The translations under genes were made by a program, and so were the position numbers. Of a DNA stretch of 64,000 nucleotides, positions 1 through 36,135 are shown one piece after another. Origin of the DNA: Anaerohalosphaeraceae bacterium (GTDB taxonomy: Bacteria > Planctomycetota > Phycisphaerae > Sedimentisphaerales > Anaerohalosphaeraceae); the NCBI GenBank assembly GCA_050309605.1, contig JBNRMN010000052.1:1-64000 (forward strand), written 5' to 3'. Positions within the stretch are counted from its first letter, which is position 1, and the number at the start of each line of letters is the position of its first letter. The notes below the pieces were generated by a model. It ran no database searches, was not told where the DNA came from, and saw only the letters and a program-made list of their open reading frames with translations.

Positions 1-1
1 A

Positions 2-1150
2 ACGTCGCGTCAGCAACTGAGCTGCATTCGAAACGGCGGGAACGTTCAGCGTGTTGTCCGCCACGCAGTGATAAAATCCTTCATCGGCGATCTGCACATT
101 CTCAATGACCAGCGTCGAAGCGGTTTGCCCGCTCAGCGCTTCGCCGTCTTTGTACCACTGATAGGTTTCGGCGTTCAGAGCGTGCACCGACAACTCCGCC
201 GCAGCGCCGATGTCAACGGTTTGAGCGGCGGGATGCTGCACGATAATCGCCTCGGCAGGCACGGTCGTAAACGACCAGACCGGTCCCACATACCGAATCG
301 GCGTCGGATCATTCGGCTCATACACATCCACCCGCCAATAATACGTCGTTCCGTTCAGCAACGAAACCGGAAGGCTGGTCTGGTCCGTCGAAGCCTCAAG
401 CGCCGACGGGTTGCCTTCGGCCACAAGCGTTTCGTTGGGGTCGATATAGACATCGTATCCCGCCGCCGCATACGCATTCGGGCCGACCCAGCTCAATTCG
501 ACATCCGCCGGTACATTATCCGCGCCGTTGGCCGGAACAGGTGTGTTGACATACGGTGTCACCGTGCTGTACGTCGCAATAAAATGGGGGTTCCAGTTGG
601 GTTGATTGATGGTGGTAAAACCGCTCTGGATAACACCGCCCCAGGGATAGGCCGTGCTGACTTCCTGTTCGACGCCGCCGGTGACAAGATTCCACGTCCC
701 TTCTTCTTCGCCCGGCACCAGCCACACGATGGCATACTGGGTGTCCTTATTCAAGGGGACATAATCAAACTCCCATGTCATCAGCGAATCAGGGTAGGTA
801 ATGGGAGTGGCTGCCATATTCACCGTATTGGTTGAAATACCGACAATCGTAGAGTTGTTGAGATTGCCGTCCCATGTCAAAACGCCCAAATGCGCTTCGC
901 CCGTTGCGCCAAATCCACTGGATGATTTGGCATAGGTCCAGTCCAGCAGATACATCACATCCGGCACCACCGTCTCGGCCGGATCCAGCGCCGTCTTGGC
1001 CGGGGTCATCACATGTGACAAGAAAGCCGCCTGATTGGTTCTAAAGAGAGGCTCCACACCATGAAACGTCTCGGTAAACGTGTCCGCAAAGGCAACCGAA
1101 CACAAGGCGATGAAAATCGCCGACACCAGTAATATGCTTTTATTCTTCAT
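2..1150 (-). CDS. Secreted modular protein (signal peptide + unassigned 'domain A' + FN3-like + Ig-like), 3' end runs off the window; paralogue of 1188..3137
   Basis: Absent from the ORF track (no stop in window). Manual translation from ATG 1150: MKNKSILLVSAIFIALCSVAFADTFTE...PDVMYLLDWTYAK...IVGISTN...MTWEFDYVPLNKDTQYA...YYWRVDVYEPN...GPVWSFTT...YQWYKDGE...DEGFYHCVADN, open to the window edge; GGAG-type RBS upstream; colinear with the 649-aa neighbour. Confidence 0.9.
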   Translation of the reverse strand, partial: MKNKSILLVSAIFIALCSVAFADTFTETFHGVEPLFRTNQAAFLSHVMTPAKTALDPAETVVPDVMYLLDWTYAKSSSGFGATGEAHLGVLTWDGNLNNSTIVGISTNTVNMAATPITYPDSLMTWEFDYVPLNKDTQYAIVWLVPGEEEGTWNLVTGGVEQEVSTAYPWGGVIQSGFTTINQPNWNPHFIATYSTVTPYVNTPVPANGADNVPADVELSWVGPNAYAAAGYDVYIDPNETLVAEGNPSALEASTDQTSLPVSLLNGTTYYWRVDVYEPNDPTPIRYVGPVWSFTTVPAEAIIVQHPAAQTVDIGAAAELSVHALNAETYQWYKDGEALSGQTASTLVIENVQIADEGFYHCVADNTLNVPAVSNAAQLLTRR

Positions 1151-1187
1151 AATCGTTCTCCTGTCAAACATAATGTTTCAATCGCCT

Positions 1188-3137
1188 TTAATCTACATTT
1201 CTGACGACATTGCTGTCCAGCCAGTTCTCCGCCAGGACCGCTAAATCGTACAGATCGACGCGGCAATCCCGATGTTCAGGCCCCACACCGGTCGGACCGG
1301 CGATGTCAAGTTCAGGGAATCGGGCACAGACATCATTATCCTTAATTTCACGATAGACCTCGATAATCTCATCAAGCGACAGCGGATAATTATAGATCCG
1401 GACATCATCGACGGAACCGGTAAAACCAAGCTGCGTATCCGCCTCGAATGCACCGCCGATCAGCAGATCGGTTTGCCCCGACGACAACGTCCCTTGAATC
1501 CCTGCGACATCCTGCAGAACTTCAAAGGTATCGCCATTATTGTAGATTCCGTAAGTGCGCCGCTCCTGCGTGGCCGGATCATAGGTCATCGCCGCAAACC
1601 GCCAGCCGTCGGATTGATCGCCCGGCACCGCCGTGACCCAGGGGCCTCCATCCAGAAGCGTCGCGATTTGTTCGTTTTGGCCTTTTCCAATCGCATAGGA
1701 TCCGGTTTTACTGACCGCCCTGCGGTAATCCCGACCCGACGGACCGGCCACCCAGGCCGTTACGGTCAGCCCATTGGGGTGGAAATTGAAGAACTGGGCA
1801 CTGTTCGGAATCCGAACCACCCTGATTCCATTAAACCGGGCAGCGCCCTGCGGCGTCCCGTCTGCCCCCTCGACATAGCTGACCGGTTCTGTTGCCGGCT
1901 CGCCTTCTTCAATATACACGCCGTCCCAGTTCTCATCCATTTTAGTTACAATCGCCTCAAGCGAACCGTCCAGCGGCCAGTGAGCAATCAGACGCCGAAT
2001 CATCAGCCGCGCCGGATTCGATGCCTCCGGTACTTGACGCTCATTGTCCACAACGCAGTAATACTCCCCTTCATCGTCATACTGAGCATTCTCCAGCGTC
2101 AGAACAGGTGAATCCTCCCCTATCGGCACACTGTTGCCGTCCGGCAGCACCTTGTACCACTGATACACCGTCGTGTTCTCCGCTTCCACGGAAAATTCAG
2201 CCGTGCCGCCTTGCGGTACGGACGTATTGACAGGATGCATCGTAATCACGGCTCTGGCCGTAACCGTCGAAAACGACCACACCGGACCGGTATGCACGAC
2301 CGGCGTCGGCTCGTTCGGTTCAACAGCCTCGACGCGCCAGTAGTAAGTCATATCGTTGTCCAGGGTCGGAACGGGAGTAAACGTCAACTCCTGCTGAGCG
2401 GGACTGTAATACATCGCATCCTGAGCCGTCAGGTTCAGCTCATTCGGATCCAGATACACCGTGTAAGATAAGGCCTCATAGGCCTCCGGACCCTCCCACG
2501 ACAGCGTCACTTCAGTCGGCACATTGATCGCACCGCTGGCCGGATAGGGACTACCGGCCACTTGGCGTTGACTGACACTGTAGGTCGCCTGAAACTGACT
2601 GTCCCAGTTATTGGCAATTTCACCTATACGAATCCAGCCGCCGCCGTCGTAGGGGCTGCCTGTCGTCATCCGAACCTCGCCGCGGATTCCGGAAGTGATT
2701 TCGCCCCCCACATACTGAACAAACATCATGGCGTACTGGGCATTGGCATCCAGCTCCAGATAATCAAACTCCCATATCATCAGCGCACCGGGGGCAAACG
2801 CTGACATATCCAGGGCGTTGGTTGACACGCCGACCAATGTGGCTTCGGTCATCTCGGCGACAGTCAACGCTGAAAAAACCGCCAGATAGGTCTGGCCGCC
2901 CTGAGGCACACTCGAAGGCGACCGGAAATACCTCCAGTCCAGCAGATAGACCGTTTCCGGAACGCTGAACCCCTCCGGACTTATCAGACCGGCGTTCGGG
3001 GTAAACGTCTGTCCCCAGCCGTTGGCTTGGTCGGCCACCTGATCAAACAGGGGGTTTCCGGCGGTAAACGTCGCTGCGCCGGCCGTAAGGGACAACCCTG
3101 CCAAAATCATCAAGCCTGCAATTAATTTTGTTCTCAT
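1188..3137 (-). CDS. Secreted modular protein: domain A + FN3-like + Ig-like + LamG-like jellyroll + C-terminal dockerin-like motif
   Basis: Signal peptide; YYWRVEAVEPN..GPVWSFST; Ig motifs YQWYK...DEGEYYC; LamG-like AHWPLDG...FTGSVDDVRIYNYPLS; C-terminal DCRVDLYDLAVLAENWL; GGAGG RBS. Confidence 0.85.
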   Translation of the reverse strand: MRTKLIAGLMILAGLSLTAGAATFTAGNPLFDQVADQANGWGQTFTPNAGLISPEGFSVPETVYLLDWRYFRSPSSVPQGGQTYLAVFSALTVAEMTEATLVGVSTNALDMSAFAPGALMIWEFDYLELDANAQYAMMFVQYVGGEITSGIRGEVRMTTGSPYDGGGWIRIGEIANNWDSQFQATYSVSQRQVAGSPYPASGAINVPTEVTLSWEGPEAYEALSYTVYLDPNELNLTAQDAMYYSPAQQELTFTPVPTLDNDMTYYWRVEAVEPNEPTPVVHTGPVWSFSTVTARAVITMHPVNTSVPQGGTAEFSVEAENTTVYQWYKVLPDGNSVPIGEDSPVLTLENAQYDDEGEYYCVVDNERQVPEASNPARLMIRRLIAHWPLDGSLEAIVTKMDENWDGVYIEEGEPATEPVSYVEGADGTPQGAARFNGIRVVRIPNSAQFFNFHPNGLTVTAWVAGPSGRDYRRAVSKTGSYAIGKGQNEQIATLLDGGPWVTAVPGDQSDGWRFAAMTYDPATQERRTYGIYNNGDTFEVLQDVAGIQGTLSSGQTDLLIGGAFEADTQLGFTGSVDDVRIYNYPLSLDEIIEVYREIKDNDVCARFPELDIAGPTGVGPEHRDCRVDLYDLAVLAENWLDSNVVRNVD

Positions 3138-3605: not shown

Positions 3606-4268
3606 CTACGCCCGTCGCCGACGCAGCAGCGCCACTGCACCGAATCCCAGCATCGACAGCGTTGCCGGTTCGGGAACGACGACCGAAACATTGTCAATGC
3701 CCACGAACGGGGCGGTCGCATCGGTGCCTGTAAAGGCGATCTGGATAAACAACATCTCGTCAACCCCAACCGTGCCGCTGTTGAAATGAATGGTCGTCAT
3801 CTGGTCGTCATAGGTCCCTTTGATCCCAATATCATCATTCCCGTCACCGCGTGCGACAACATCCAGCGGGCCGCCGATCACGCTGCTGGCCGTGCCCAGC
3901 GTCTGACCGACCAGCAGGTCAACCCAGGCGGTTGCGGTTCGGGCAGGGTCATCCGTCTCGCACACGATCGCGGCAGAAAAGATATAATCCGTATCCGCAG
4001 CCACGGTTATACCTCGGCTGTTAATCCCGGTCCCTGCCGCGGCATTGGCGGAGCTGGCGATCCACAGTGTCTGACCGCCAAAATTGCGCCAGGTATAAAA
4101 AATACGGCTGGCATTGGAACCTGAACCTTGGCCGTTCCAGGTCCAGTTACCGGTGGCACTGAAGTCGGCCGGGTCGCTCAGCGGATAGGCCTCGAAATCA
4201 TCGACGAAGACCGCGCTTGCCGCGGTCGCCAAGGCCACAATCATTGTTAATACTGCCAATCTCTTCAT
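3606..4268 (-). CDS. PEP-CTERM sorting domain protein carrying unassigned 'domain B'
   Basis: Signal peptide MKRLAVL...ASA; C-terminal VPEPATLSMLGFGAVALLRRRRA; GGAGGT RBS favours ATG 4268 (ORF track start 4283). Confidence 0.9.
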   Translation of the reverse strand: MKRLAVLTMIVALATAASAVFVDDFEAYPLSDPADFSATGNWTWNGQGSGSNASRIFYTWRNFGGQTLWIASSANAAAGTGINSRGITVAADTDYIFSAAIVCETDDPARTATAWVDLLVGQTLGTASSVIGGPLDVVARGDGNDDIGIKGTYDDQMTTIHFNSGTVGVDEMLFIQIAFTGTDATAPFVGIDNVSVVVPEPATLSMLGFGAVALLRRRRA

Positions 4269-4331
4269 CGTCATTACCTCCATACTAAAAGTTAAGATTA
4301 CGTTAATGACAGATCATCTACTGTGTGCCGA

Positions 4332-4961
4332 TCATGCGCGACGCCGACGCAGCAGCGCCAATCCGCCCAGCCCCAGCATCGACAGCGTCGCCGGTTCGGG
4401 AATATAGGTCGCCTGAAACTGGCCGTCCCAGTCATTGGCGATCTCGTTGATACGCACCCAGCCGCCGCCGGTGTATTGGTTGCCGACCGTCAAGCGAACC
4501 GCCCCCTTGACGATTTGCAGTACATCCTCATTGTACTGAACAAACATCATCGCATACTGCGTGTTCGCATCCAGTTCCAGCGCGTCAAATTGCCAAGTCA
4601 TCAGGTCGTTGGCCGCAAAATCCTGTGCATTGAGCGCATTGGTGGATACACCAACCAGCGCAGCATCAGTCATCCCGGCAACCGTCAATGCCGAATACAC
4701 CGCCAAATAGGTATCGCCCGGCGCCGGCAAGTTGGTTGTCGAATCCGTTTTGGCATACGTCCAGTCCACCAGATACACGGTATCCGGAACGACATAACCT
4801 TCCGGAAGGATTTTGCCGGCGTTCGGCGTAAAAATTTGTCCCCACCCGTCGGCGCGATTGTCCCATGTGCCGTACGTCGGGTGCCCGGCCGTAAACGTCG
4901 CAGCGGCGACTGCCGACAAGGCAATCACCATCGCCAGACTTAACATCATTTTCGTTTTCAT
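4332..4961 (-). CDS. PEP-CTERM sorting domain protein consisting of domain A
   Basis: Signal peptide; C-terminal IPEPATLSMLGLGGLALLRRRRA; GGAGG RBS. Confidence 0.9.
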   Translation of the reverse strand: MKTKMMLSLAMVIALSAVAAATFTAGHPTYGTWDNRADGWGQIFTPNAGKILPEGYVVPDTVYLVDWTYAKTDSTTNLPAPGDTYLAVYSALTVAGMTDAALVGVSTNALNAQDFAANDLMTWQFDALELDANTQYAMMFVQYNEDVLQIVKGAVRLTVGNQYTGGGWVRINEIANDWDGQFQATYIPEPATLSMLGLGGLALLRRRRA

Positions 4962-5066: not shown

Positions 5067-5897
5067 TTATCGCCACGTTTGAGGGATATAAAAATACCCA
5101 TCCGAACTCATCATCGTCTCCTGACCGGTGTAGCGTCGGACGCTGCCGTCGGCATAACCGGCATTCATTCGCAATTCTTCCATTTCCGTTGGAAGCCGAC
5201 CGGTAGAGGGAATTGAGCCGGGGGCAGGCACATAAATCCAGAAAGACGCGCAATAATTCCCATACATAGGATCTCGGTCGTAATCTTTGAATAGGCCGGA
5301 ACCACGCCGCGGCCGATGCGCCAGCCACCAGTCCTCAGCCACGCCGGGCCAATTGTAAATACTGTCGGACAACAACAACTGAGCGCTGGCTTTGGTCTCA
5401 CCTCTGCCCTTGGGTCCTGTAAACTGCCGACCATCGAGCATCGCCATGGAATAACCGCCCCAGTATAAATTGTACGAGCAGTTTGTACCTTCTCCGGAGT
5501 CTTTGTAATTGACGTATTGATACTGCAATTCGGAATAATCCCTCGTACGTCCCAGGGGACACATAAAGGTGTCAACCAGAGGCAGATAGCCCCCCAAATA
5601 ATAATACGTGCCTTCATTTTCGGCCCAACCGGCAACGCCCTGATGGTAATTCAGGTAATTGGCCACGCTGAATGTTCCGTTTGTACGTTCAGCCGGATGG
5701 GGAGGCAGAACACCTTGATTGTCAGCGGCGTAGGCCAGCACGCCCTTAACCGTCTGATTCATATTGTTGGCGCAAACAATCAACTTCGCGGCCTCCTTGG
5801 CCTTGCGCAAAGAAGGCACCACAATGGACATCAACAGTGCGATGACGGCGATGACCACGAGCAGTTCGATCAGCGTAAACGCCCTTCGATTCTTCAT
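5067..5897 (-). CDS. Prepilin-type N-terminal cleavage/methylation protein (planctomycete DUF1559-like)
   Basis: MKNRRAFTLIELLVVIAVIALLMSIVVPSLRKAKE...C.NN; C-terminal MNAGYADGSV; start placed at ATG 5897. Confidence 0.88.
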   Translation of the reverse strand: MKNRRAFTLIELLVVIAVIALLMSIVVPSLRKAKEAAKLIVCANNMNQTVKGVLAYAADNQGVLPPHPAERTNGTFSVANYLNYHQGVAGWAENEGTYYYLGGYLPLVDTFMCPLGRTRDYSELQYQYVNYKDSGEGTNCSYNLYWGGYSMAMLDGRQFTGPKGRGETKASAQLLLSDSIYNWPGVAEDWWLAHRPRRGSGLFKDYDRDPMYGNYCASFWIYVPAPGSIPSTGRLPTEMEELRMNAGYADGSVRRYTGQETMMSSDGYFYIPQTWR

Positions 5898-5995
5898 TTT
5901 ATGATCCTTTCCATTGGATGTTGCTGCATTTATATTGCTGCACCATGTCATTCAGTCGTCTCACATCCATCGCCGTTAAGATGCAATGGATCGTT

Positions 5996-7366
5996 TCACG
6001 GCGAAATACAGTTGATATTCGCCGGATCAGTGCAGCTGAGCCAATCCTGTGCCAATAAGACAAAATCCTTAAAATCAACGTAACAATCCCGGTTCAAATC
6101 GCCCGGCAGATACGTTCCGGGCGTAAAACAGCCGTCCAGAAAATCTTCGACTTGCTGTCCGTCCAAAAGCCAGCTCAGGTTAAACCGGACAAACTGAGCG
6201 CCTTGATACATATAATTAGGGCCGCCTTCAAACATCAGATAAATCCAGCCTTCGCTCGGCGTGCCCGGTCGGCCTGCGGTCATTGATGAATAAGCACTGG
6301 GACCGTCAAAGACCAGCCGCTTGACCGGCCACGTCTTGCCGCCGTCAAAACTGCCCCACACCGTCATTCGCTGACGTCCGCTGTTTGAATCAATATTACT
6401 GAAGATCAAAATGTCCTGATCTCTGACCGGCAGTCTCACCAGACCGCCCATCAATCCATAGGTACTGTCCTGATTGCCGTCGGGCAGGACGTCACTGACC
6501 GACAAATCCTGCCAGGTGTGGCCGTCGTCATAACTCCAGGCGATATGCCGCCACAGCGGACTCAAGCCGTCGGTGGACAGGTGGCGACGTGAATTGTAAT
6601 TGATGACGCCGCTGGACAGCTCCGCCAGCGCCGCCTCGCCGGTCCCCAGGGCGGGAAACGGGGCACTGGTTTGCCACGTGTATCCCCCGTCGTCGCTGTA
6701 CATGGCGCAGTTATAATGAGTCGGCCAGCTCTCTCTGGCATTACTCCAGCCCGGCATCACCCGAGCGGGCATCAGCAGCCGCCCTTTGTGCTGACCATAC
6801 CGCAGCGTAATGCCGGAATCCGCGCCGTGCGTAAACGCGCTGCCGGCCTGGTACATTTCGTCGTTAATGACCGTCGCTTCATTGGCGGCAACAATGTCTT
6901 TTCTCTGGCCGTTGTGCTCCCAGGTCTTGCCGTGGTCGCCGCTGCGCCAGGAATGCCCACTCTCCCAATCGCCGCCGACGCCGTCCATAAACACAATCAC
7001 ATCGCCGGTGGTTTCATCGACCACCGCCGCGCCCAGCCCGACACCGGCCATGGCGGGATCGTCGCCAATCACAATTTGATCCCCCCATGTCGCCCCGCCG
7101 TCCTCACTGCGGCGAACGCGGGGCAGCGTATTATTCCCCCAAAACGCCAGCACTGTTCCGTCCAGTGCGACCACAATGCTTGGAAACCGGCCGCCCGTAT
7201 AAATCTGCTGCATTTCCATCGCAGGCTCTGCCAGAAACGAATCCAGCTGCGCATCCTGATACTCCAGATTGGCAGCTCCCAGCGCAACCGGCCTGAGCCA
7301 ACCCGTAACAGAAAAAACCGCGATTGCGAATACGAGTGTACATGGTGTTATTCGATTGTCAGGCAT
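5996..7366 (-). CDS. Sialidase (GH33 family) with C-terminal dockerin-like motif
   Basis: RFP (RIP-like) motif, five Asp-boxes (SEDGGATW, SGDHGKTW, SDDGGYTW, SYDDGHTW, SFDGGKTW), AYS nucleophile Tyr, signal peptide, PGDLNRDCYVDFKDF..LAQDWL; ORF track start 7381. Confidence 0.85.
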   Translation of the reverse strand: MPDNRITPCTLVFAIAVFSVTGWLRPVALGAANLEYQDAQLDSFLAEPAMEMQQIYTGGRFPSIVVALDGTVLAFWGNNTLPRVRRSEDGGATWGDQIVIGDDPAMAGVGLGAAVVDETTGDVIVFMDGVGGDWESGHSWRSGDHGKTWEHNGQRKDIVAANEATVINDEMYQAGSAFTHGADSGITLRYGQHKGRLLMPARVMPGWSNARESWPTHYNCAMYSDDGGYTWQTSAPFPALGTGEAALAELSSGVINYNSRRHLSTDGLSPLWRHIAWSYDDGHTWQDLSVSDVLPDGNQDSTYGLMGGLVRLPVRDQDILIFSNIDSNSGRQRMTVWGSFDGGKTWPVKRLVFDGPSAYSSMTAGRPGTPSEGWIYLMFEGGPNYMYQGAQFVRFNLSWLLDGQQVEDFLDGCFTPGTYLPGDLNRDCYVDFKDFVLLAQDWLSCTDPANINCISP

Positions 7367-7435
7367 TCTTCTTTCTTCCAAACAAATAATAAGTTCATCT
7401 GTTCCGATACAACCACGCTGACCGTTTCGTTGACA

Positions 7436-8506: not shown

Positions 8507-8537
8507 CAAAACTCCTCTAATGAATATTGGATACCAC

Positions 8538-9293: not shown

Positions 9294-9417
9294 CGTGTGT
9301 GTGATCTCCCTGAGAGGACTCATTGGCAATACCTTTCCGACTATTTCATAAATCCCAATCTGAGCGATTAGACCGAAGATAGCTGATAAACACTTAATCA
9401 CTTAAGTACTTAATTGA

Positions 9418-9858: not shown

Positions 9859-9885
9859 CACAACAGCGCGCACAACAGCGAGGCG

Positions 9886-26284: not shown

Positions 26285-26305
26285 ACAGCCTTCCTTTTCT
26301 AATGA

Positions 26306-28368: not shown

Positions 28369-28385
28369 CACAAAGCCTTTGCTGT

Positions 28386-30353
28386 CTATTCGTCTTTCGT
28401 AATGCTGATGATGCCGTTGGAATCCGATCCGCCGTCGCTGCGAACCACCGCACGCAGCCGATACGCCGCCTGCGGATCAAAATCCTTTTGGGGAACGACA
28501 AGCTTGTATGTATTGCGATAATTCGAGCCGCCGGTGCGCCCCTCATGAACATCCGTCGCAACCAAAACGTCGCCGCTGAGAAGCTGTACCTCGCGAATAT
28601 CCAGGCGATGAGCGCCGTGCGTATAGGAAAAGTGAACCGTATAGGTTCCCGGCTCTTGAAGATGGCCGCCCACATCCCAGGTCATCGGTTGATAGGTCTC
28701 ATCGGTCTGCCCCGACGACCAGCGGCCGATTTCAATCCGCGGCGGATCCAGCGGACGATAATGCATCTTCACGTAGGAAAGTCGCTGGGTATGCCGGGTC
28801 ATCCGATTGTAAAAATCGGAATAATCCTTTCTTTCCATCGGCGTCCAGGCAATTTCCGACAGTGCACACCCCCGCGGAAACGCCATATAAGCGGCATGTT
28901 CCGGCGTGGAAATGTATTCCGTCCAGATTTGAGCCTGCACCCCCAGGATATGCTTTTTCTGGGTGTCTGTCAGCACGCTCGGAACCGGATCATACGAATA
29001 GACTCTTTCCAGCGGTATAAATCCGCCGATGGCCAGCGGCTCTGTTTGGGGATCGGCCTGATAATAATCAAAATAAAGGTGCGTATTGGACGCCATCACC
29101 ACATCATGGCCGGCCCGTGCGGCCTGGATGCCTCCGCTTTCGCCGCGCCAGCTCATCACCGTCGCGTTCGGCGCCAGCCCCCCTTCCAGAATCTCATCCC
29201 AGCCGATCAGACGCCGTCCATGGGCGTTCAGGAATCTCTCGATTCGCTGAACAAAATAGCTTTGCAGCTCGTGTTCATCGGCCAGCCCTTCCTGTTCGAT
29301 TCGCGCCTGACAGTGGGGACAGGCTTCCCATCGCACCTTAGGGCACTCGTCCCCGCCGATATGAATATACTCACCGGGGAACAGTTCCATCGTTTCGGTC
29401 AGAACATCTTTGAGAAACTCAAACACCTTGTCGTTGCCGGCACAATAAACATCCCGCATAATACCCCATCGGGTTTGCACTTCAAACGGTCCGCCCGTGC
29501 AGGACAATTCAGGATAGGCCGCAAGCACCGCCATACAATGTCCGGGCATCTCGATTTCAGGCACAATGGTAATAAACTGCTGCTGAGCATACGCAACAAT
29601 CTCGCGGATTTCCTCTTGGGTATAAAACCCGCCGTGCGGCGTCCCGTCGTAGTCTTGGGTATTGCGCCCGAGGACTGTCTCTTTGCGCCAGGACGATATC
29701 TCTGTCAGTTTCGGATACTTCTTGATCTCGATCCGCCAGCCCTGATCTTCGTTCAGATGCCAGTGGAAGGTATTCATTTTATGCAGCGCCAGCACATCAA
29801 TGAATTTCATCACAAATTCCTTCGGCATAAAATGACGCGACGTATCCAGCATCATTCCGCGCCAGCCGAACCGGGGATAATCTTCAATCTTCACGCACGG
29901 CACAGTCCACGCCGCGCCCTGGACTTTCGAGGGGCTGAATATCTCTGTCGGCAAGAGCTGCCGCAGCGTCTGTCCGCCGTAAAACAACCCCGCCGGCGAC
30001 GGGGCCGTAATCACCACCTGTCGGACGCCTGCATCCAGACGATAGCCTTCCTGACCCAACGCCTCGAGCGACGGATCTATCTTCAGAACGATCCGATTCG
30101 CCTGATCCGACACCCAGCGTCGCACAGGCAGCGCAAACCCTGTGGCCGGGCGCAACTGCGCAGCCAGCCGACGACCGACCGACTCAGAAGCGTGTTCAAC
30201 CGCGATAACGGTATCGGAGGTCACCTCGAATTCGCCTGACTGCACCTCCAGTTTTACCGGTTGAGGAATAATCGAAACCGTCGATTGGCCGATTGCCGCG
30301 CTGGCGACTATTGTCATCGTCATAAGAGATACGAATCTTCGCAAACCATTCAT
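28386..30353 (-). CDS. Beta-N-acetylhexosaminidase (GH20)
   Basis: DYPRFGWRGMMLDTSRHF, HWHLNEDQGWR, PEIEMPGH, HIGGDEC, WTEY; signal peptide; ORF track start 30428. Confidence 0.93.
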   Translation of the reverse strand: MNGLRRFVSLMTMTIVASAAIGQSTVSIIPQPVKLEVQSGEFEVTSDTVIAVEHASESVGRRLAAQLRPATGFALPVRRWVSDQANRIVLKIDPSLEALGQEGYRLDAGVRQVVITAPSPAGLFYGGQTLRQLLPTEIFSPSKVQGAAWTVPCVKIEDYPRFGWRGMMLDTSRHFMPKEFVMKFIDVLALHKMNTFHWHLNEDQGWRIEIKKYPKLTEISSWRKETVLGRNTQDYDGTPHGGFYTQEEIREIVAYAQQQFITIVPEIEMPGHCMAVLAAYPELSCTGGPFEVQTRWGIMRDVYCAGNDKVFEFLKDVLTETMELFPGEYIHIGGDECPKVRWEACPHCQARIEQEGLADEHELQSYFVQRIERFLNAHGRRLIGWDEILEGGLAPNATVMSWRGESGGIQAARAGHDVVMASNTHLYFDYYQADPQTEPLAIGGFIPLERVYSYDPVPSVLTDTQKKHILGVQAQIWTEYISTPEHAAYMAFPRGCALSEIAWTPMERKDYSDFYNRMTRHTQRLSYVKMHYRPLDPPRIEIGRWSSGQTDETYQPMTWDVGGHLQEPGTYTVHFSYTHGAHRLDIREVQLLSGDVLVATDVHEGRTGGSNYRNTYKLVVPQKDFDPQAAYRLRAVVRSDGGSDSNGIISITKDE

Positions 30354-30372
30354 AGGCACTGTCCTTTCCAAT

Positions 30373-31305
30373 TTATCTTGACTGACTATCTCTCGCATAC
30401 AGATATTCGGGATAAACGCCCTGCTCAATCAATTGACGTACCTTCTCCTGAGCGATCGCCTGATCCTCGCGATACGTGATGCCGAACCAATTCTCGTTTG
30501 TGCTTAGAATTTGAACCTTTCTGAGACCTTTATGAATTAAGGCATCAACCGCTGTTGGAATGCCGAATTCACTTGTTGGGTTATCGCCCTCTGTTTTCAG
30601 GTAGCCGTCAAACTGCATCTGTAGAAAATCAAAAACATCCGACCCCAGCCCCCACAAATTCATCGACACATATTCCTCCCCCGACAGCCGATGCGACGCG
30701 CCCGAAGCGTCCTGATAAACGGCGCCTGTGCCGTCTTTTCGAATGCCGGTGCATTCCTGAATCGAAGTCAGCCTCATCTGCGCGTCGTACCGGCACAGGC
30801 CGCGGGATACCGCCCCGTATTCCGACAGCGTATTGCGCAGAAGATACCCCACCATCGCATAATCAGCGGCCTTGCCGGCGGCCATGTTGTCCAGATGCGA
30901 CGCCATCACGCGATACGCCTGGACGCCGTAATAATCGTCGGCGTTAATCACGGCAAACGGCTCATTAATCACGTCTTTGGCCACCAGAATCGCATGCCCC
31001 GTTCCCCAGGGCTTTTCGCGATGGGCCGGCAGCGAATAGCCGTTCAGACACGCATCCAATTCCTGATAGGCATACGCCGTTTCCACCTGATTTGCAAATT
31101 TATGGCCGATCTTCTCTCGAAAGGCGTCTTCAAAATAATGGCGAATCACAAAGACGATCTTGTCAAAACCCGCTCGAAGCGCATCATAAATGGAATAGTC
31201 AATAATGATTTCACCGTTCGGGCCGACGGGGGCGATCTGTTTCAGCCCCCCGTAGCGGCTTCCCAATCCGGCGGCGATAATAAGCAGTGTTTTTTTCTTC
31301 ACCAA
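30373..31305 (-). CDS. Sugar-phosphate nucleotidyltransferase
   Basis: AAGLGSRYGGLKQ, KPWGTGHA, NADDYYG, SMNLWG. Confidence 0.88.
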   Translation of the reverse strand: MVKKKTLLIIAAGLGSRYGGLKQIAPVGPNGEIIIDYSIYDALRAGFDKIVFVIRHYFEDAFREKIGHKFANQVETAYAYQELDACLNGYSLPAHREKPWGTGHAILVAKDVINEPFAVINADDYYGVQAYRVMASHLDNMAAGKAADYAMVGYLLRNTLSEYGAVSRGLCRYDAQMRLTSIQECTGIRKDGTGAVYQDASGASHRLSGEEYVSMNLWGLGSDVFDFLQMQFDGYLKTEGDNPTSEFGIPTAVDALIHKGLRKVQILSTNENWFGITYREDQAIAQEKVRQLIEQGVYPEYLYARDSQSR

Positions 31306-31316
31306 AAGACAACCCC

Positions 31317-33686
31317 TTAATCAAATGCCTCAATGGACTTGCGCAGCGTTCGACACGACTGGTAAAACTCGTCCGGCTCCATTTCTTTGAGGAAGACGAA
31401 CCCCCGCGTTGCGCGAATCAGCGGGCTTTTGTGATTGTAAAACCATTCCCGCCCCAGACAGGTCTTGAGCACCTGATACTGCTGAACCTGAATCCGCTGA
31501 GCCAGTTCCGAAAACGGCCCGTCGTGCTCATAACTGGGAAACGACGCTTCTTTCTGGCTGAGAAACGCATTCTCAAACGACTGATGCATCACCGAAAACA
31601 TATTCAGGCTCACCGGCACAAACACATTCGCCTCTGACGGCTCAAACCGATACCACACATTGCGATATCCCCACACCCGAATATCATCACGTTTGGTCTT
31701 CTGTTGATAGACCTGCATCGCCTCGGAGACGGCCTGAAGCACTTTATAGTGCGTATCCGGCCCGCTGGCTTCCGGGTCCAGCGCCACGGTGACCACGTCC
31801 GGATGAATACGCTCCAATTGTTCAACAATCGGCAGAATGTCGCGTTTGCGCGTCGGCTGCGGCGTGAACACATCCCCGGTATAAAACCCAAGCCGCAGAT
31901 GCATCACATTATCGCAGTTCCAGCCGTAATAGCCCCACAGACACTCCACTTCCCACTCACGGCACATGCCTTTGAGCTGCTGAATCGCCGGCGGGTCCTG
32001 CTTGCCGGGGTACTGCGTTCGAAAATAATCCAGCAGGTCGTCAATAATCTTTTCAATCTTATCGCTTTTTTTCTGCCCGTACACCGCGTACAAATTCCGC
32101 AAAAAGCGGCGCGCGCAGCCTTCGTCCTTCATCTCGGCGTTTCCGGCCGCCACCCCGTCCAGATACTGCCAGACATCACGATTCCGTGCCATCCGGTTGT
32201 CCGGTTCAAAATATCCCTCACGCCGCAACGCCGCAAACGAATGCGAATGATAAAACCGCCAAAGCGTGGATACCTGCCATTCCATAAACCGGTTGGTCAC
32301 CGACGTAAAGCCGCTGGTCAGCGTCATAAAATGATGGCGGTTGCTCGCCTTTCGAAAATGACGCACCAAATGACCGAAATACCCCAGCATAATATCATCA
32401 TGATGTGGTTCGGTATGCAGAAAACAGGTGTTCTCCAATACCTCAATGCCTTTTTTGATCTTCTGCTCAAGACGCTCCTGCACCTGTCGGGCCAATTGCG
32501 CGGGGGGGTGTTTTTCTTTGCGCACTGTTTCCGCGGCAAATCGATGCTGCTCAAAATCGCCGGCCGACAGACGCGAGAGCCTCTTTCTTTTCTGAACCGA
32601 CAGATCAATGACATATTTTTCGATATCCGCATCACTGAGCTTTCGCTGTTTGCGCAGCCGATGATACTGCCGTTCTTCAAGTCCTTTGGCCGCCCCCTCG
32701 GTCAGATAGAACCGAGCACCCGGCAACACCTGAAGCGAAGTCGCCGGATAGCGAACGTCCTTGCCCGATTGGATCGCATGGGCCACCACATCGGCTTTCG
32801 CCTCGCCGGCGGCCATAATAATCGCGGTGCAGTCCGGGTTGCGGGTAATGGTTCGCAGGCCAATGGTAATCACATGCGACCGCCGTGCGATTTCAATCCC
32901 GCCCAGATCGCCCGCCGCGGCGGCCTGCGTCTCATAATTGGTCGGACACAGCCGTGTCGTGGAATGATGATCCGAACCGCTGATATTAAACCCGATATGA
33001 CCGTCCGGCCCGATGCCGCCCAGAAAGAAGCCGATACCGCCCAATTCGGCGATGCGATCCTCATAATCCATACACCACTGGTCAATGCGCTCCAGCACAT
33101 CCTTCTGCTCGCACTCCAGATTGGTCTTGGGCTGACGATAACGCAGCGTCAAATCCACCCGCTTGTCCGGCCAGACGCGCTCCAGTGTCTGCCCAGACGA
33201 CAGACCGATCTTGCACGGATCGATCAGCATCGCCTTTTTCGGTTCCAGACCGAAGTTTTTGAGATAATACGTCTTGACGTAATAACAAAAGCTGTTGGCC
33301 TGGGCTGAATTGATTGGATAAAACTCATCAATCTGGACAAAATGAAGGCTTTTCATATCCGGCTTGACGGCCGGATCAATGCCCCATTCAATGAGCATCT
33401 TTTCGGTTTCGGGCTTGTGCCAGGTTTTCAGCAGATGCCGAACCCACTTGATGAAATACTCCGGCGTCTTGCCTGTCGGCAGTGAAATCAACCCGCCGGG
33501 ATGCTGCTGAACCCATTCCAGAAAACGCAGCGCCGCCAATTGGCCCAGGACGGGAAAACTGTTCACCACCAAAGACGGTATCTTCTCTGTCGGCGGATAG
33601 ATCATGTCATAAGCCGAACAGGCCAGCGCCTTTTTTTCGACGTGCGACAGTCGAACCGATGTTGTTACTCTTTTTTTTGCATCCAT
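31317..33686 (-). CDS. nagB: Glucosamine-6-phosphate deaminase, long form with C-terminal PIG-L/LmbE-like domain
   Basis: LPTGKTP, QIDEFYP, GGIGPDGHIGFN, ITIGL; C-terminal half has EPHHDD and DPEASGPDTHYK. Confidence 0.85.
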   Translation of the reverse strand: MDAKKRVTTSVRLSHVEKKALACSAYDMIYPPTEKIPSLVVNSFPVLGQLAALRFLEWVQQHPGGLISLPTGKTPEYFIKWVRHLLKTWHKPETEKMLIEWGIDPAVKPDMKSLHFVQIDEFYPINSAQANSFCYYVKTYYLKNFGLEPKKAMLIDPCKIGLSSGQTLERVWPDKRVDLTLRYRQPKTNLECEQKDVLERIDQWCMDYEDRIAELGGIGFFLGGIGPDGHIGFNISGSDHHSTTRLCPTNYETQAAAAGDLGGIEIARRSHVITIGLRTITRNPDCTAIIMAAGEAKADVVAHAIQSGKDVRYPATSLQVLPGARFYLTEGAAKGLEERQYHRLRKQRKLSDADIEKYVIDLSVQKRKRLSRLSAGDFEQHRFAAETVRKEKHPPAQLARQVQERLEQKIKKGIEVLENTCFLHTEPHHDDIMLGYFGHLVRHFRKASNRHHFMTLTSGFTSVTNRFMEWQVSTLWRFYHSHSFAALRREGYFEPDNRMARNRDVWQYLDGVAAGNAEMKDEGCARRFLRNLYAVYGQKKSDKIEKIIDDLLDYFRTQYPGKQDPPAIQQLKGMCREWEVECLWGYYGWNCDNVMHLRLGFYTGDVFTPQPTRKRDILPIVEQLERIHPDVVTVALDPEASGPDTHYKVLQAVSEAMQVYQQKTKRDDIRVWGYRNVWYRFEPSEANVFVPVSLNMFSVMHQSFENAFLSQKEASFPSYEHDGPFSELAQRIQVQQYQVLKTCLGREWFYNHKSPLIRATRGFVFLKEMEPDEFYQSCRTLRKSIEAFD

Positions 33687-33720
33687 ACGTTCACAAACAA
33701 GTAAGAAAATGTAATAAAAG

Positions 33721-35085
33721 TCAATACAACGTATCCACCCCCAACGGACGGGCTGTTTTCCACGCGCCGCGCGTAAAATCGGGGAATTTGACCGGTTCGC
33801 CGTTGCGCGCGACGGATTTTTCGCTCAGCGGAATGACCGCATTCCACACGACCGAGTCATACACATTGATGTCCGGCTGAAGCCCTTTGCGCAGGGCCTG
33901 AATCAAACGATAATCCTCAATGAAATCCATTCCGCCGTGACCGGCCCCGGCGGCATCTTCTTTCAGCTTCGTCCAGACGGGGTGTTCAAACTCGTCAAAA
34001 TACGCCTCCAGCTTGTCCCACTGATGAGAACGGCTTCGACCTTCGATATGCACCAACTGCTCCGGATATTTGCGCGCCAGCCCTCGGGTGCCCTGCACCA
34101 GAAAGTCCCGACTGTAAGGCCGCGGCAGATTGGTGTCATGCTTGCAGATGATGGTCTTGCCGTTTTTCGTGCGAATCAGACACGTATTGACATCCCCCAG
34201 CGCAAATTTCTGATGAACCCATTCGCTGTCCGGATAATGCTCACGGGCATACGCATTCAGCCCGCGCCCTTTGCTGCTGAATGAGACCATATAATCCAGC
34301 GCATCGCCGTGATGAATCCCCATACACCACGCCATCGGGCCGATGCCGTGCTGCGGATACAGATTGCCGTTGCGTTTGATAGAATACTGCAAACGCCACA
34401 TATTGTAATAGTACGTCGGCGACAGTTTCAGCGCCCGCAGATCATGCAGATAGCCGCACTCGCCGTGAATCATCTCACCGAACAGGCCCTTTTGAATCAT
34501 ATTCAAAAGCACCATCTCCGTGTAATCATAACAGCAGTTCTCCATCATCATACAGTGGCGGCGATGTTTCTCCGACGTCTCGACCAGCTCCCAGCAATCG
34601 TCCAGCGACATCGCCAGATTCAGCTCCGTGGCCGCATGCTTGCCGTTTCGCATCGCTGTCAGTGCAATCGGTGCGTGCCATTCCCACGGCGCGGCGCTAT
34701 AGACCAGATCCAGCTCTTCCTGCTCGCACATCCGCTGGAAATCCCGCGGCCCGTCGGTATAGGCCGTCGGTTCCGGATGTCCCGCATCCATCAGGACTTG
34801 TTTGGCCCACGCCGTCCGTTCGGGACGCACGTCACAGACCGCGGCCACCTGACACCCTTCAATTCGCGAAAGATTACGAATATGCCCGCTGCCCATATTG
34901 CCAATCCCGACAAAGCCGACCTTGATCACATCCTTGGGGGGCGTCGGATAATTCAGCATCACAGCCGGTTCGGCCTTGTGAACCGACTGGGCACAGCCGG
35001 AAAGCGTGGCACCGGCAACAACGGCGCCGAAGCCGGCCGCAGCGCTTGTTTTGAACAAATCTCTTCGGTTAATCGAATTTTTCAC
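33721..35085 (-). CDS. Gfo/Idh/MocA-fold glycosidase, GH109 alpha-N-acetylgalactosaminidase-like; Tat lipoprotein
   Basis: GTG start with AGGAG RBS; NRRDLFK Tat motif, LSGC lipobox; GFVGIGNMG, MENCCY, YPQHG, RPYSR, GHGGMD. Confidence 0.87.
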   Translation of the reverse strand: MKNSINRRDLFKTSAAAGFGAVVAGATLSGCAQSVHKAEPAVMLNYPTPPKDVIKVGFVGIGNMGSGHIRNLSRIEGCQVAAVCDVRPERTAWAKQVLMDAGHPEPTAYTDGPRDFQRMCEQEELDLVYSAAPWEWHAPIALTAMRNGKHAATELNLAMSLDDCWELVETSEKHRRHCMMMENCCYDYTEMVLLNMIQKGLFGEMIHGECGYLHDLRALKLSPTYYYNMWRLQYSIKRNGNLYPQHGIGPMAWCMGIHHGDALDYMVSFSSKGRGLNAYAREHYPDSEWVHQKFALGDVNTCLIRTKNGKTIICKHDTNLPRPYSRDFLVQGTRGLARKYPEQLVHIEGRSRSHQWDKLEAYFDEFEHPVWTKLKEDAAGAGHGGMDFIEDYRLIQALRKGLQPDINVYDSVVWNAVIPLSEKSVARNGEPVKFPDFTRGAWKTARPLGVDTLY

Positions 35086-35182
35086 GTTCGCACTCCTGTT
35101 CCTGAAGGGTTGGCGTTCACTGTATTTGAACCGATATTGTCCGCAGCGATCCAAGTGACATCAATTATAAGCGGATTATTTC

Positions 35183-35211
35183 TTGAACCCAATAGACCAA
35201 CGTAATATAAT
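35183..35211 (+). promoter_or_regulatory. Sigma70-type promoter for araC (a divergent TATAAT lies at 35164-35169 on the minus strand)
   Basis: TTGAAC-N17-TATAAT. Confidence 0.65.
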
Positions 35212-35247
35212 GATGGAAAATCGTAACATAAATTGAGGGTTCATACC

Positions 35248-36135
35248 ATGACAACCGGCGAAAAACAAAAGATAAAACGTCAATATACGTCCGGAAAGCC
35301 TGGAAATGTCATTGATGCGGATTACTTCTACTTTGATACAGCCCCGCGGGAGCACAACGATCTGGCCATTGTCTGCGGCGGATACGAAAAATGCGCCCCG
35401 GACTTTGACATCAATCGCAGCAACTATCCCTACTACTTTATCAAATATACCGTCAACGGCAAAGGAACGCTGCACATCGATTCACGGTCCCACGCGCTGC
35501 GGCCGGGAATCCTGACCGGATTCGCCCCGGGCACCCCACACCATTACAAAGCCGACACGGCCAATCCGATGGAACATATTTTCATTACCTTTTTGGGGGA
35601 TGACTGCGCCGACTTGTTCGCAAAAAGCACGCTGGCAGAAAAACACTGCATTCTGTCGGACAACCCCGATGAAACACTGAATCTGCTCAACAAAATCCTG
35701 CTGTTGGGCCATGAAAAAATCGATTATGCACAAGAGATCTGCTGTGCGTATCTGCGCATCCTGCTGTTGGAACAGCCCGCCTATGTGACGCAAAGTAAAG
35801 CCAATTATCCGATTTCCAAAGGCACTTACCTGGACTGCAAACGATACATCGACACCCATTTCTCAACCATTAAATCACCCAGTGAAGTCGCCGAAAAGTG
35901 CGGCATCGACGTCCGCTATTTATCGGTCCTGTTCAAGCGTTACTGCCACATTTCCCCCAGTCAGTACCTCCAGCGGCTCAAACTCAATAAAGCCGCCAAT
36001 TTATTGCTGACCACCGATCTGGCCATTAAAGAAGTCGCTTATCGGGTTGGATTTGAGGATCCCTATCATTTCTCGAAAAATTTCAAAGATCTTCACGGAC
36101 AAGCGCCCAATCATTATCGAAAAAATCACATGTGA
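35248..36135 (+). CDS. AraC family transcriptional regulator, divergent from the HexNAc operon
   Basis: N-terminal cupin (PGTPHHY); C-terminal double HTH YLSVLFKR..ISPSQYL...IKEVAYRVGFEDPYHFSKNFK. Confidence 0.93.
   Translation: MTTGEKQKIKRQYTSGKPGNVIDADYFYFDTAPREHNDLAIVCGGYEKCAPDFDINRSNYPYYFIKYTVNGKGTLHIDSRSHALRPGILTGFAPGTPHHYKADTANPMEHIFITFLGDDCADLFAKSTLAEKHCILSDNPDETLNLLNKILLLGHEKIDYAQEICCAYLRILLLEQPAYVTQSKANYPISKGTYLDCKRYIDTHFSTIKSPSEVAEKCGIDVRYLSVLFKRYCHISPSQYLQRLKLNKAANLLLTTDLAIKEVAYRVGFEDPYHFSKNFKDLHGQAPNHYRKNHM

Follow-up and report, generated by a model that had tools for sequence, protein, structure and literature searches.

Breakdown of mucin-type O-glycoproteins is understood chiefly in gut Bacteroidota, Akkermansia and Bifidobacterium; in the Bifidobacterium GNB/LNB pathway (NahK/GalT/GalE) an N-acetylhexosamine (HexNAc) 1-kinase acts first, followed by 4-epimerization at the level of the uridine diphosphate (UDP)-sugar. 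Here we analyse a gene array at positions 1-36135 of the window, a 64,000-nt stretch of contig C52 of a Sedimentisphaerales/Anaerohalosphaeraceae-like Phycisphaerae bacterium, which encodes predicted enzymes for the degradation of sialylated, N-acetylgalactosamine (GalNAc)-bearing O-glycoproteins. The closest known system is the polysaccharide utilization locus (PUL) BT4240-50 of Bacteroides thetaiotaomicron.

Operon 1 of this PUL encodes the GalNAc-preferring 1-kinase BT4240, 39% identical to the B. longum kinase, the glycoside hydrolase family 2 (GH2) enzyme BT4241, the transporter BT4242 and the GH109 enzyme BT4243, and operon 2 encodes the M60L-CBM32 protein BT4244, an SGBP (a protein binding glycans at the surface) and SusC/D (Ndeh et al., 2025, PMC11992087). 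According to the main text of that study, the PUL is induced by mucin, growth on GalNAc needs the kinase, operon 1 is widespread in Bacteroides, and the M60 operon is joined to it in few species. The same main text has GalNAc phosphorylated “for downstream metabolism”, with no mention there of an epimerase, a uridylyltransferase, a deaminase, UDP-GalNAc or the Leloir pathway. As for Planctomycetota, another study reports GH33, GH29, GH95 and GH109 as enriched in those of digesters and growth of Pirellulales on mucin, with no known mucin-backbone metalloprotease found in the mucin-enriched Pirellulales strains (PMC11929135).

The array described here belongs to an island that probably dismantles sialylated GalNAc-anchored (mucin-type) O-glycoproteins and metabolises the released amino sugars, as judged from homology and the predicted location of the products. 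Animal mucin is a plausible substrate, as may be other sialylated GalNAc-bearing glycoconjugates. The most valuable lead is a candidate HexNAc-1-phosphate (HexNAc-1-P) catabolic route that includes a NagB-LmbE fusion protein. An earlier note on this DNA, made from the letters alone, had proposed a SusC/D-free PUL analogue for mucin-type O-glycoproteins that covers sugars, peptide backbone and threonine. This interpretation is partly supported: it needs extension to the left, the island is better seen as built in layers and put together in part by horizontal transfer, and the threonine link has to be downgraded.

Open reading frames (ORFs) of positions 1-36135 (n=23, all of at least 100 aa) were scanned against Pfam and NCBIfam, scores being judged against the curated cut-off of each family in bits, and termini and metal motifs were inspected directly in the translations. 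The co-oriented run of families named in the note is all there, every gene lying on the minus strand except that of an AraC-family regulator. The predicted enzymes, the transporter and their immediate companions are as follows:

5996-7381, minus strand: exo-sialidase of GH33-like type, bearing a signal peptide and a dockerin-like tag (BNR_2, 9.3e-18, 65 bits, cut-off 31.4)
10523-14479, minus strand: secreted LacZ-type GH2 beta-galactosidase with C-terminal F5/8-C (CBM32) module (Glyco_hydro_2_C, 3.1e-90; F5_F8_type_C, 8.3e-25)
14509-16803, minus strand: secreted M60-like O-glycopeptidase with N-terminal CBM32 (PF13402, 1.8e-36, 126.6 bits, cut-off 25.8)
16933-20727, minus strand: 1264-aa secreted multidomain protein with metzincin-like site, Big_9, Laminin_G_3, PA14 and dockerin-like tag (Pfam and reading of the translation)
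20880-22067, minus strand: glycine C-acetyltransferase Kbl (TIGR01822, 651.6 bits, cut-off 493)
22090-23121, minus strand: L-threonine 3-dehydrogenase Tdh (TIGR00692, 465.9 bits, cut-off 458.35; NF003808, 542.5 bits, cut-off 380)
23206-23925, minus strand: CBM9_2-family protein without signal peptide (PF16011, 1.9e-40)
23996-26284, minus strand: sodium:solute symporter (SSS), 762 aa, candidate HexNAc importer (PF00474, 3.5e-30)
26306-27277, minus strand: NAD-dependent sugar-nucleotide 4-epimerase, GalE/TviC-like (PF01370, 1.2e-58; galE model, 8.2e-49, below cut-off)
27217-28371, minus strand: NahK-type N-acetylhexosamine 1-kinase of the APH family (APH, 3.4e-20)
28386-30428, minus strand: secreted GH20 beta-N-acetylhexosaminidase (PF00728, 2e-124; 6q63, 2.5e-179)
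30373-31305, minus strand: sugar-1-phosphate nucleotidyltransferase, conserved partner of the kinase (PF00483, 1.6e-9; 3pnn, 5e-91)
31317-33686, minus strand: 789-aa protein with NagB-fold deaminase/isomerase domain (residues ~36-344) and LmbE/PIG-L-fold deacetylase domain (~418-776) (NF002557, 196 bits; structural model)
33721-35154, minus strand: GH109 alpha-N-acetylgalactosaminidase with twin-arginine-like signal (PF21252, 8.7e-57, 191.9 bits, cut-off 27)

Signal peptides are visible in the GH33, GH2, M60, 1264-aa and GH20 proteins, and a twin-arginine-like leader in GH109. The kinase, the nucleotidyltransferase, the epimerase, the NagB-like protein, Tdh, Kbl and the CBM9-like protein have no signal peptide. 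The layer-by-layer match of these enzymes to a sialyl-Gal-(GlcNAc)-GalNAc glycopeptide (GlcNAc, N-acetylglucosamine), as claimed earlier, holds by homology to solved O-glycopeptidases, GH109 and the 1-kinase. No SusC/D-type family was seen among the 23 ORFs scanned against Pfam, in line with the proposed PUL analogue without SusC/D; the adjacent SusC and SusD that define a Bacteroidota-type PUL are likewise absent from these ORFs.

Among the exported glycosidases, GH109 has an N-terminal Rossmann NAD-binding domain (PF01408, 48.2 bits, cut-off 24) and matches to solved structures (6t2b, 4e-102; 2ixa, an alpha-N-acetylgalactosaminidase, 5e-89). The GH33 protein has five Asp boxes (SxDxGxTW) and an arginine motif G-R65-F-P in place of FRIP; its best solved match, 1eur “SIALIDASE” (9e-22), is more distant than the matches of the other locus enzymes. 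The GH2 enzyme reaches 982.9 bits against the Bga2A model NF052611 (cut-off 999).

The clustering of the locus genes is beyond chance, as they are mostly single-copy in the 3.4-Mb genome. In a tblastn search of the genome (E<=1e-10, coverage >=0.4), the M60, kinase, nucleotidyltransferase, NagB fusion and CBM9-like proteins have one match each. The locus GH109 is the only GH109_C match in the genome by family search, a second match by tblastn being weak (26% identity).

The M60 protein has the motif HEFGH (residue 461), whose second His is followed 14 residues on by a Glu. Its solved matches include BcM60K, C and F, O-glycopeptidases of B. caccae (2e-79 to 3e-66), along with 7sci (1e-62) and 5kd2 (4e-49), labelled “Peptidase M60 domain-containing protein” and “metallopeptidase”, respectively, which we take to be Akkermansia AM0627 and BT4244. 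Moreover, its N-terminal module matches the B. theta CBM32 7blg (1.5e-11). All 15 homologs with an organism name come from genera taken as Bacteroidota (Marinilabiliales genera, Sphingobacterium, Dysgonomonas; two genera were checked in the taxonomy) at 41-52% identity, and most of the 15 carry a BACON domain. The single M60 locus outside close kin in the genome contigs searched is in a metagenome-assembled genome (MAG) of Prolixibacteraceae (52% identity), and the GC content at third codon positions (GC3) of the M60 gene, 0.571, is the lowest of the locus, compared to 0.63-0.65 for its neighbours GH2, the metzincin-like gene and kbl. Given the genera of the homologs, the Prolixibacteraceae match and the lowest GC3, the M60 gene is probably a recent insert from Bacteroidota into an older GalNAc locus.

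The second candidate protease, the 1264-aa protein, was called a metzincin in the note. The motif HEVGHNLGASD (HExxHxxGxxD) is indeed present at residue 481, and similarity to Reprolysin clusters in the Atlas is 0.92; the Reprolysin models stay below their cut-offs (Reprolysin_3, 20.2 bits, cut-off 22.4; Reprolysin_5, 19.3 bits, cut-off 27). We refer to it as metzincin-like and not as a proven member of the family.

In the core of the array, the three solved matches of the kinase are all N-acetylhexosamine 1-kinase chains (4ocu, 4wh1 and 4ocj, presumably B. longum NahK; 3e-81, residues 4-362). By sequence it is a NahK-type HexNAc/GalNAc 1-kinase. The best solved match of the nucleotidyltransferase is 3pnn, an uncharacterised “conserved domain protein”, GalU-type enzymes being matched weakly (12 PDB matches at E<=0.01). 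The epimerase is proposed to be a UDP-GalNAc/UDP-GlcNAc 4-epimerase. The SSS transporter recurs beside the kinase in five related genomes (G001, G002, G006, G013 and G022). The CBM9_2 protein, whose sole solved relative is the “uncharacterized protein” 4jpq (3.7e-28), adjoins the transporter or the kinase in four relatives (G001, G002, G006, G031); to find a “CBM” in the cytoplasm as part of a sugar operon is odd.

The pairing of an APH-family anomeric kinase with an NTP_transferase is also that of AmgK/MurU, so the two genes might belong to a cell-wall sugar recycling bypass (MurNAc/GlcNAc to UDP-MurNAc) instead of a GalNAc route. This is highly improbable: the kinase matches only N-acetylhexosamine 1-kinases among solved chains, the nucleotidyltransferase only 3pnn and GalU-type enzymes, and the pair sits among GH109, GH20, a 4-epimerase and a NagB-type deaminase. 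With no MurU-type chain among the 12 PDB matches of the nucleotidyltransferase, the AmgK/MurU reading was rejected.

The protein listed simply as NagB in the note does have a NagB domain and is in fact a two-domain fusion of NagB with an LmbE-type deacetylase. It is unmatched by Pfam at 1e-3; NF002557 (PRK02122) matches at 140-349 and 408-593 with 196.2 bits, well below the cut-off of 384, so that the architecture is shared but the protein is not a member by this model. The AlphaFold model (pLDDT 83.4, pTM 0.83) has two domains. Residues 36-344 adopt the NagB fold (Z 25.1, root-mean-square deviation (rmsd) 2.4, 243 aligned residues, to 1ne7), and residues 418-776 align with the P. horikoshii diacetylchitobiose deacetylase 3we7 (Z 15.0, rmsd 4.7, 232 aligned residues) and further with 5bmo (Z 14.8), 2ixd (14.4) and MshB (11.5). 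The C-terminal domain was seen by exhaustive VIA search; Foldseek with the whole model returned NagB/Pgl chains only, and a profile search of PDB sequences did not find this domain.

The fusion belongs to a large conserved family: of 8000 candidates that were scored, 6809 reach E<=1e-10. The 27 aligned homologs are 62-82% identical to the locus protein, and their source names point to Phycisphaerae/Anaerohalosphaeraceae/Sedimentisphaerales, Planctomycetota and Calditrichaeota. GGIGPDGHIGFN, TEPHHDD and DTHYK are invariant across the 27 aligned sequences, and we take the DGH motif and the HxDD...H motif to be catalytic or metal sites. PRK02122 “glucosamine-6-phosphate deaminase-like” proteins have the same domain order and agreeing folds; the locus fusion differs from them in scoring below the cut-off, in its length (789 aa vs a 653-position model) and in forming a large conserved family of its own. 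As nagA (TIGR00221) was not found in the window's own genome, which is 99.7% complete, the LmbE-type domain is the sole HexNAc deacetylase candidate seen. A literature search found no paper on the function of the NagB-LmbE fusion.

Set against BT4240-50, the locus has the same kinds of genes for a NahK-type 1-kinase, a GH2 enzyme, an inner-membrane sugar transporter, GH109 and an M60-like O-glycopeptidase with CBM32. It differs in having no SusC/D, SGBP or extracytoplasmic function (ECF)/anti-sigma genes, with AraC and GntR regulators instead, in an SSS and not a major facilitator superfamily (MFS) transporter, in a LacZ-type GH2 with CBM32, and in a host from Planctomycetota. GH20, GH33, the metzincin-like protease, PEP-CTERM, pilin-like and dockerin-tagged proteins and tdh-kbl are additional to the Bacteroides system, as are the candidate downstream genes for the nucleotidyltransferase, the 4-epimerase and NagB-LmbE. 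That the kinase sits with the last three suggests a route downstream of GalNAc-1-P. The locus shares with the Bifidobacterium GNB/LNB pathway a HexNAc 1-kinase and a UDP-sugar 4-epimerase, and departs from it in a pyrophosphorylase-type (3pnn-like) and not GalT-type NTP_transferase; no GNB/LNB phosphorylase or ABC importer of that pathway was seen in the locus.

The following sequence of events can be proposed from homology and predicted location. Sec- and Tat-exported enzymes, some with dockerin-like or PEP-CTERM tags, would remove N-acetylneuraminic acid (Neu5Ac; GH33) and beta-galactose (GH2-CBM32), and beta-HexNAc and alpha-GalNAc would be removed outside the cytoplasm by GH20 and GH109, respectively. 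The glycopeptide backbone would be cut by the M60-CBM32 O-glycopeptidase and the metzincin-like protease, and LamG/Ig/domain A proteins possibly bind the substrate instead of SusC/D. The SSS transporter would import HexNAc, to be phosphorylated at O1 by the NahK-type kinase; the partner nucleotidyltransferase would activate the product, and the 4-epimerase would turn GalNAc into GlcNAc at the UDP-sugar level. After a return to HexNAc/HexN phosphate by a mutase step, the NagB-LmbE fusion would deacetylate and deaminate the sugar to yield fructose-6-phosphate. Families, export signals, gene order, conservation pattern, the fold of the fusion and the overlap of the contigs are shown by the sequence; we infer what class of substrate is attacked, in which order the enzymes act, the passage from the 1-phosphate through UDP-HexNAc to epimerization, the return to a 6-phosphate, the LmbE substrate and co-regulation.

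We tentatively suggest, as a proposal that may well turn out otherwise, that the core is an undescribed GalNAc/GlcNAc catabolic route bypassing NagA and the Aga/tagatose pathway (1-kinase, 3pnn-type nucleotidyltransferase, 4-epimerase, NagB-LmbE), to which an acquired Bacteroidota O-glycopeptidase and threonine catabolism were added. A search of the literature for a bacterial catabolic step from GalNAc-1-P to UDP-GalNAc beside NahK gave chemoenzymatic and review work, and no such pathway among the papers listed. If the proposal is true, the HexNAc-1-P route supplies the steps after GalNAc-1-P left open in the B. theta BT4240 study, gives a function to thousands of ~785-aa proteins labelled “glucosamine-6-phosphate deaminase”, and makes the locus a SusC/D-free island leading from glycopeptide to central metabolism in a planctomycete lineage. 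Candidate genes for the fate of GalNAc-1-phosphate adjoin the kinase.

The note had remarked on the absence of nanA, nanK and nanE. None of them is in the window; a NanA-like lyase, a GlcNAc 2-epimerase and a NanM-SSS fusion lie just past its left edge, on contig C20, and NanE was not found by family search in the genome. C20 ends in the very 23 nt with which C52 begins. The first gene of the window is cut at the 3' end and a LamG fragment on C20 at the 5' end, and in the related genome G002 the orthologs of both halves (92% and 80% identity) form one gene. From these three observations we conclude that the end of C20 adjoins the start of C52, and the caveat about missing Neu5Ac catabolism falls away. 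Moreover, in G002 the nan genes and a window-type array through GH109 are continuous on one contig. Reading the contigs as adjacent, we obtain a putative island of ~57 kb, from ~133,400 to the end of C20 plus C52:1-36135, with positions 1-36135 of the window as its right-hand two thirds.

On the minus strand, C20:140000-154393 encodes a sulfatase, a creatininase-family protein, an 841-aa GH33, the NanM-SSS fusion, a GH20, the NanA-like lyase, the GlcNAc 2-epimerase, a GH29 fucosidase with CBM32 and the LamG fragment; two LamG proteins and a pilin-like protein are to the left of this sialoglycan block. This set resembles the Bacteroides-type sialic acid route (lyase plus GlcNAc 2-epimerase) with a NanM-type mutarotase, having GH33, a NanA-like lyase, PF07221 and a NanM domain. 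It differs in that the NanM (mutarotase) domain is fused to an SSS transporter (879 aa), in that the DHDPS-family lyase, which adjoins the PF07221 GlcNAc 2-epimerase at the end of C20, is below the nanA cut-off (149 bits, cut-off 382), and in that the genes are outside the window.

The sialidases of the island change from one species to another. G002 lacks both the GH33 of the window and the 841-aa GH33 of C20 at their positions, and has on its contig C3, between the epimerase gene and a PEP-CTERM protein 1-like gene, a different GH33-like gene with 30% identity to the 841-aa protein. Just left of the island, on the plus strand of C20 (130031-133349), a glycyl-radical enzyme (PFL-like, 805 aa) is encoded together with a radical-SAM activase; its substrate may be a deoxy-sugar or an amino acid that arises as glycoproteins are broken down.

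For the history of the locus we compared 41 genomes (40 related ones and the window's own, G000). Kinase orthologs are present in 13 of the 40, and the flanks of all 13 were compared by tblastn. In G006 (93% identity) the genes from M60 to GH20 follow one another as in the window, and the contig ends on both sides. In G002 (79%), the whole array from LamG to AraC-polA is retained, minus GH33 and the 357-aa domain A protein, neither of which has a counterpart at the same position, and minus M60. G001, of the same genus (46%), has only CBM9-SSS-kinase-GH20-nucleotidyltransferase-NagB fusion-GH109-AraC. In other genera, the kinase and the nucleotidyltransferase are kept together in G021, G022, G023, G035 and G039. 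Further members present there are the epimerase (G039, G031), GH109 and SSS (both in G022 and G013), the NagB fusion (G013, G023) and CBM9 (G031); in the flanks compared for G017, G037 and G038 the kinase is alone. Overall, the nucleotidyltransferase lies within ~3 kb in seven of the 13 kinase-positive relatives, the NagB fusion is adjacent or close in four (G001, G002, G013, G023), and GH109 is close in four (G001, G002, G013, G022). Of 150 other genomes sampled from the phylum, the kinase is found in 19 and the nucleotidyltransferase in 17; in six of the 12 with both, the two are adjacent.

The HexNAc core (kinase and nucleotidyltransferase, with or without the epimerase, GH109, SSS and the NagB fusion) recurs across the order. 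GH2, the metzincin-like protein and tdh-kbl are found only in the closest kin, and an M60-CBM32 gene in a kinase/GH109/GH2 locus is seen, among the 41 genomes, only in G000 and G006. Six of the 41 genomes have M60, which is missing from G001 and G002; its linkage to the kinase is confined to G000 and G006. Unlinked sub-clusters in related genomes, which the note had named as refuting its reading, are seen in part: M60 and tdh are mostly unlinked in the relatives, and the linkage of the kinase/nucleotidyltransferase core recurs. These patterns are best explained by growth of the island through accretion: an old kinase/nucleotidyltransferase core; GH20 and AraC at the genus level; GH2, the metzincin-like protein, tdh-kbl and the surface proteins at the subclade level; and M60 and GH33 at the species level. 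Such a modular history, with the kinase/GH part spread more widely and the M60 part in few genomes, is also that of BT4240-50.

Near-identical contigs recovered in three further studies retain the gene order: in X3 one contig covers 3534-9631 and another 10390-19035, and the GH2/M60 junction is bridged in X4 and X5. Near-identical DNA (at least half of the sampled words) was found in runs from seven other studies, labelled soil, gut, litter, biogas fermenter and sludge. This range makes an animal mucin substrate plausible.

Several points weigh against the mucin-type reading of the island and the route proposed for its core. The habitats just named supply non-mucin sialo- and GalNAc-glycans as well. 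The GH2 enzyme is by family models of the LacZ/Bga2A type, which does not imply a core-1 specificity like that of the beta-1,3-galactosidase BT4241. M60 and GH33 are not linked to the kinase beyond the closest kin, and M60 lies far from it in G013 and G037. The GntR and AraC regulators, a 1.1-kb REP-filled gap (REP, repetitive extragenic palindromic) and gaps of 129-468 nt speak for several transcription units. In the core, the NagB-like domain reads FNIS at the position of the canonical NagB motif FNEP, only three of the 150 other genomes from the phylum have the fusion, which in G045, the sole one with the kinase as well, lies apart from it, and no locus gene accounts for the step from UDP-GlcNAc or HexNAc-1-P to the NagB-LmbE substrate (two phosphohexomutase-family genes, below the glmM cut-off, are elsewhere in the genome, on C55 and C53). 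Finally, no RNA run containing the locus was found for positions 25201-35200.

Some of these points would fit a general HexNAc salvage or utilization operon as well, with GH109/GH20, SSS, NahK, the nucleotidyltransferase, the epimerase and NagB-LmbE handling HexNAc of any source (N-glycans, glycosaminoglycans, bacterial or fungal glycoconjugates, biofilm glycoproteins) and feeding UDP-HexNAc pools or catabolism. GH2, the proteases, the sialidase and tdh-kbl would then be accidental neighbours and the system not dedicated to mucin-type substrates. Only the kinase/nucleotidyltransferase core recurs outside the genus, the regulators are separate and the REP array fills a gap between blocks, the GH2 is of LacZ type, the DNA of the organism is found in soil, sludge and digester runs besides gut, and the B. 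theta kinase serves GalNAc of chondroitin sulfate too (PMC11992087). Yet the only M60, the only GH109, both GH33 and both GH20 copies of the genome are within one joined island, and the M60 resembles solved O-glycopeptidases and bears a B. theta-like CBM32. Repeated independent insertions of O-glycan-related genes (the Bacteroidota M60, GH33) would be unexpected for unrelated neighbours, and an equivalent enzyme set is functionally linked in B. theta. On balance we regard general salvage as an unlikely account of the island, and favour degradation of mucin-type O-glycoproteins. The same enzyme logic would then have been assembled independently in a Phycisphaerae planctomycete, without SusC/D, with other surface proteins and with an O-glycopeptidase apparently imported from Bacteroidota, which makes planctomycetes candidate degraders of glycoproteins in manure, litter, the gut and digesters.

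The threonine layer of the note fares less well than the sugar layers: tdh-kbl are indeed present in the array, and conserved coupling is not seen. As a working third layer, the two enzymes would convert O-glycopeptide threonine to glycine and acetyl-CoA under common control with the GalNAc genes. They are 84 nt downstream of the CBM9-like gene, co-oriented and within the array, and their position is kept in all three subclade genomes (G000, G002, G006). The tdh of the locus is the only true one of the genome, tblastn matches to tdh and kbl elsewhere being distant paralogs with 25-34% identity. In family f1, tdh is present in eight of the nine kinase-positive genomes vs 12 of 25 overall, a difference confounded by completeness and by non-independence of kin. 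However, of the 12 genomes out of 41 with tdh, it is linked to the kinase only in these three, and in five others with both genes (G001, G013, G017, G022, G023) the two are on different contigs, so that the linkage represents one evolutionary event. Moreover, Tdh-Kbl is a general housekeeping route, and positions 1-36135 hold no amino-acid or peptide transporter and no exopeptidase, the nearest Opp-type system being 13 kb to the right, past polA. A working threonine layer is doubtful, and by its gene content and distribution the arrangement appears to be a lineage-specific adjacency with no conserved coupling.

The remaining features of positions 1-36135 are surface proteins, regulators and a repeat array:

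2-1171, minus strand: 5' part of a secreted protein with signal peptide, “domain A” and Ig_3 (3.4e-10), continuing beyond the left edge of the window
1188-3137, minus strand: secreted protein with domain A, Ig_3, Laminin_G_3 and dockerin-like C-terminal tag, candidate surface glycan-binding protein (Pfam; termini)
3606-4283, minus strand: PEP-CTERM protein 1 (PF07589, 24.9 bits, cut-off 20.7)
4332-4961, minus strand: PEP-CTERM protein 2, domain A with PEP-CTERM anchor (PF07589, 23.3 bits; alignment)
5067-5951, minus strand: prepilin-type N-terminal methylation (pseudopilin-like) protein (PF07963, 33.4 bits, cut-off 21.2)
7436-8509, minus strand: secreted domain A protein, 357 aa, with dockerin-like tag (no Pfam family)
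8538-9401, minus strand: GntR/FCD-family regulator, weakly NanR-like (FCD, 2.8e-13; NanR model, 4.6e-11, below cut-off)
9870-10350 (approximate), no strand: REP-like array of direct and inverted repeats between the GntR/sialidase block and GH2 (repeat analysis)
35233-36135, plus strand: AraC-family regulator, divergent from GH109, at the right boundary of the locus (HTH_18, 3.8e-23; AraC_binding, 6.7e-11)

The PEP-CTERM, pilin-like and dockerin-like proteins that the note had put in place of SusC/D are all present, and the LamG/Ig/domain A proteins may serve as binding proteins in that place, a role that we infer. Dockerin-like C-terminal tags are carried by four locus proteins (7436-8509, 5996-7381, 1188-3137, 16933-20727). 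Genome-wide, a single dockerin-like tag D-x-N-x-D-C-x-V-D-x-x-D-F ends 25 ORFs, and PEP-CTERM-like anchors end 27 ORFs. The protein at 1188-3137 has 22 paralogous tblastn matches in the genome, and the N-terminal domain of PEP-CTERM protein 1 shares ~40% identity with the N-terminus of the 1264-aa metzincin-like protein. With its two longest queries, domain A itself gives 13-22 tblastn matches in the genome, counting the copies of the window, and it has few homologs elsewhere: a word-indexed homolog search returned seven proteins only, of the 114-366 aa class, and the Atlas PEP-CTERM clusters only. The AF2 model of PEP-CTERM protein 2 has a pLDDT of 56.8, and its best VIA Z is 5.8, within noise, with beta-sandwich, lectin and CBM chains of various kinds as matches, so that no fold is assigned.

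The note had suggested several transcription units from the REP array and terminators. The array is confirmed at ~9870-10350; terminator-like sites are at chance level compared to shuffles (19 vs 21.1+-4.8 expected; 18 vs 18.8+-4.7) and so define no transcription units. Intergenic gaps from GH109 to kbl are <=84 nt each. Larger gaps are observed between kbl and the gene of the 1264-aa protein (152 nt), between the latter and M60 (129 nt), between GH2 and GntR (1121 nt, with the REP array), and between PEP-CTERM protein 1 and LamG (468 nt). The REP element is highly repeated and variable: in four metagenome runs, the two bins over the array (9339-10672) reach 7- to 59-fold the contig word depth found in the adjoining bin (8672-9338), and internal joints are numerous.

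At the right boundary, AraC adjoins GH109 in G001 and G002 too, and polA comes next after AraC. A DnaA-family protein (Bac_DnaA and Bac_DnaA_C, 39063-40379) adjoins polA, and C89 has a second DnaA-like gene (33% identity). Across the window the GC skew is monotonic, so that no replication origin is evident. Further to the right of polA are an S8 subtilase (43937-45361), GlmS (46558-48426) and an Opp/Dpp-type ABC importer with two SBP_bac_5 proteins (49198-57144), possibly for peptide uptake, with housekeeping genes between the importer and the locus.

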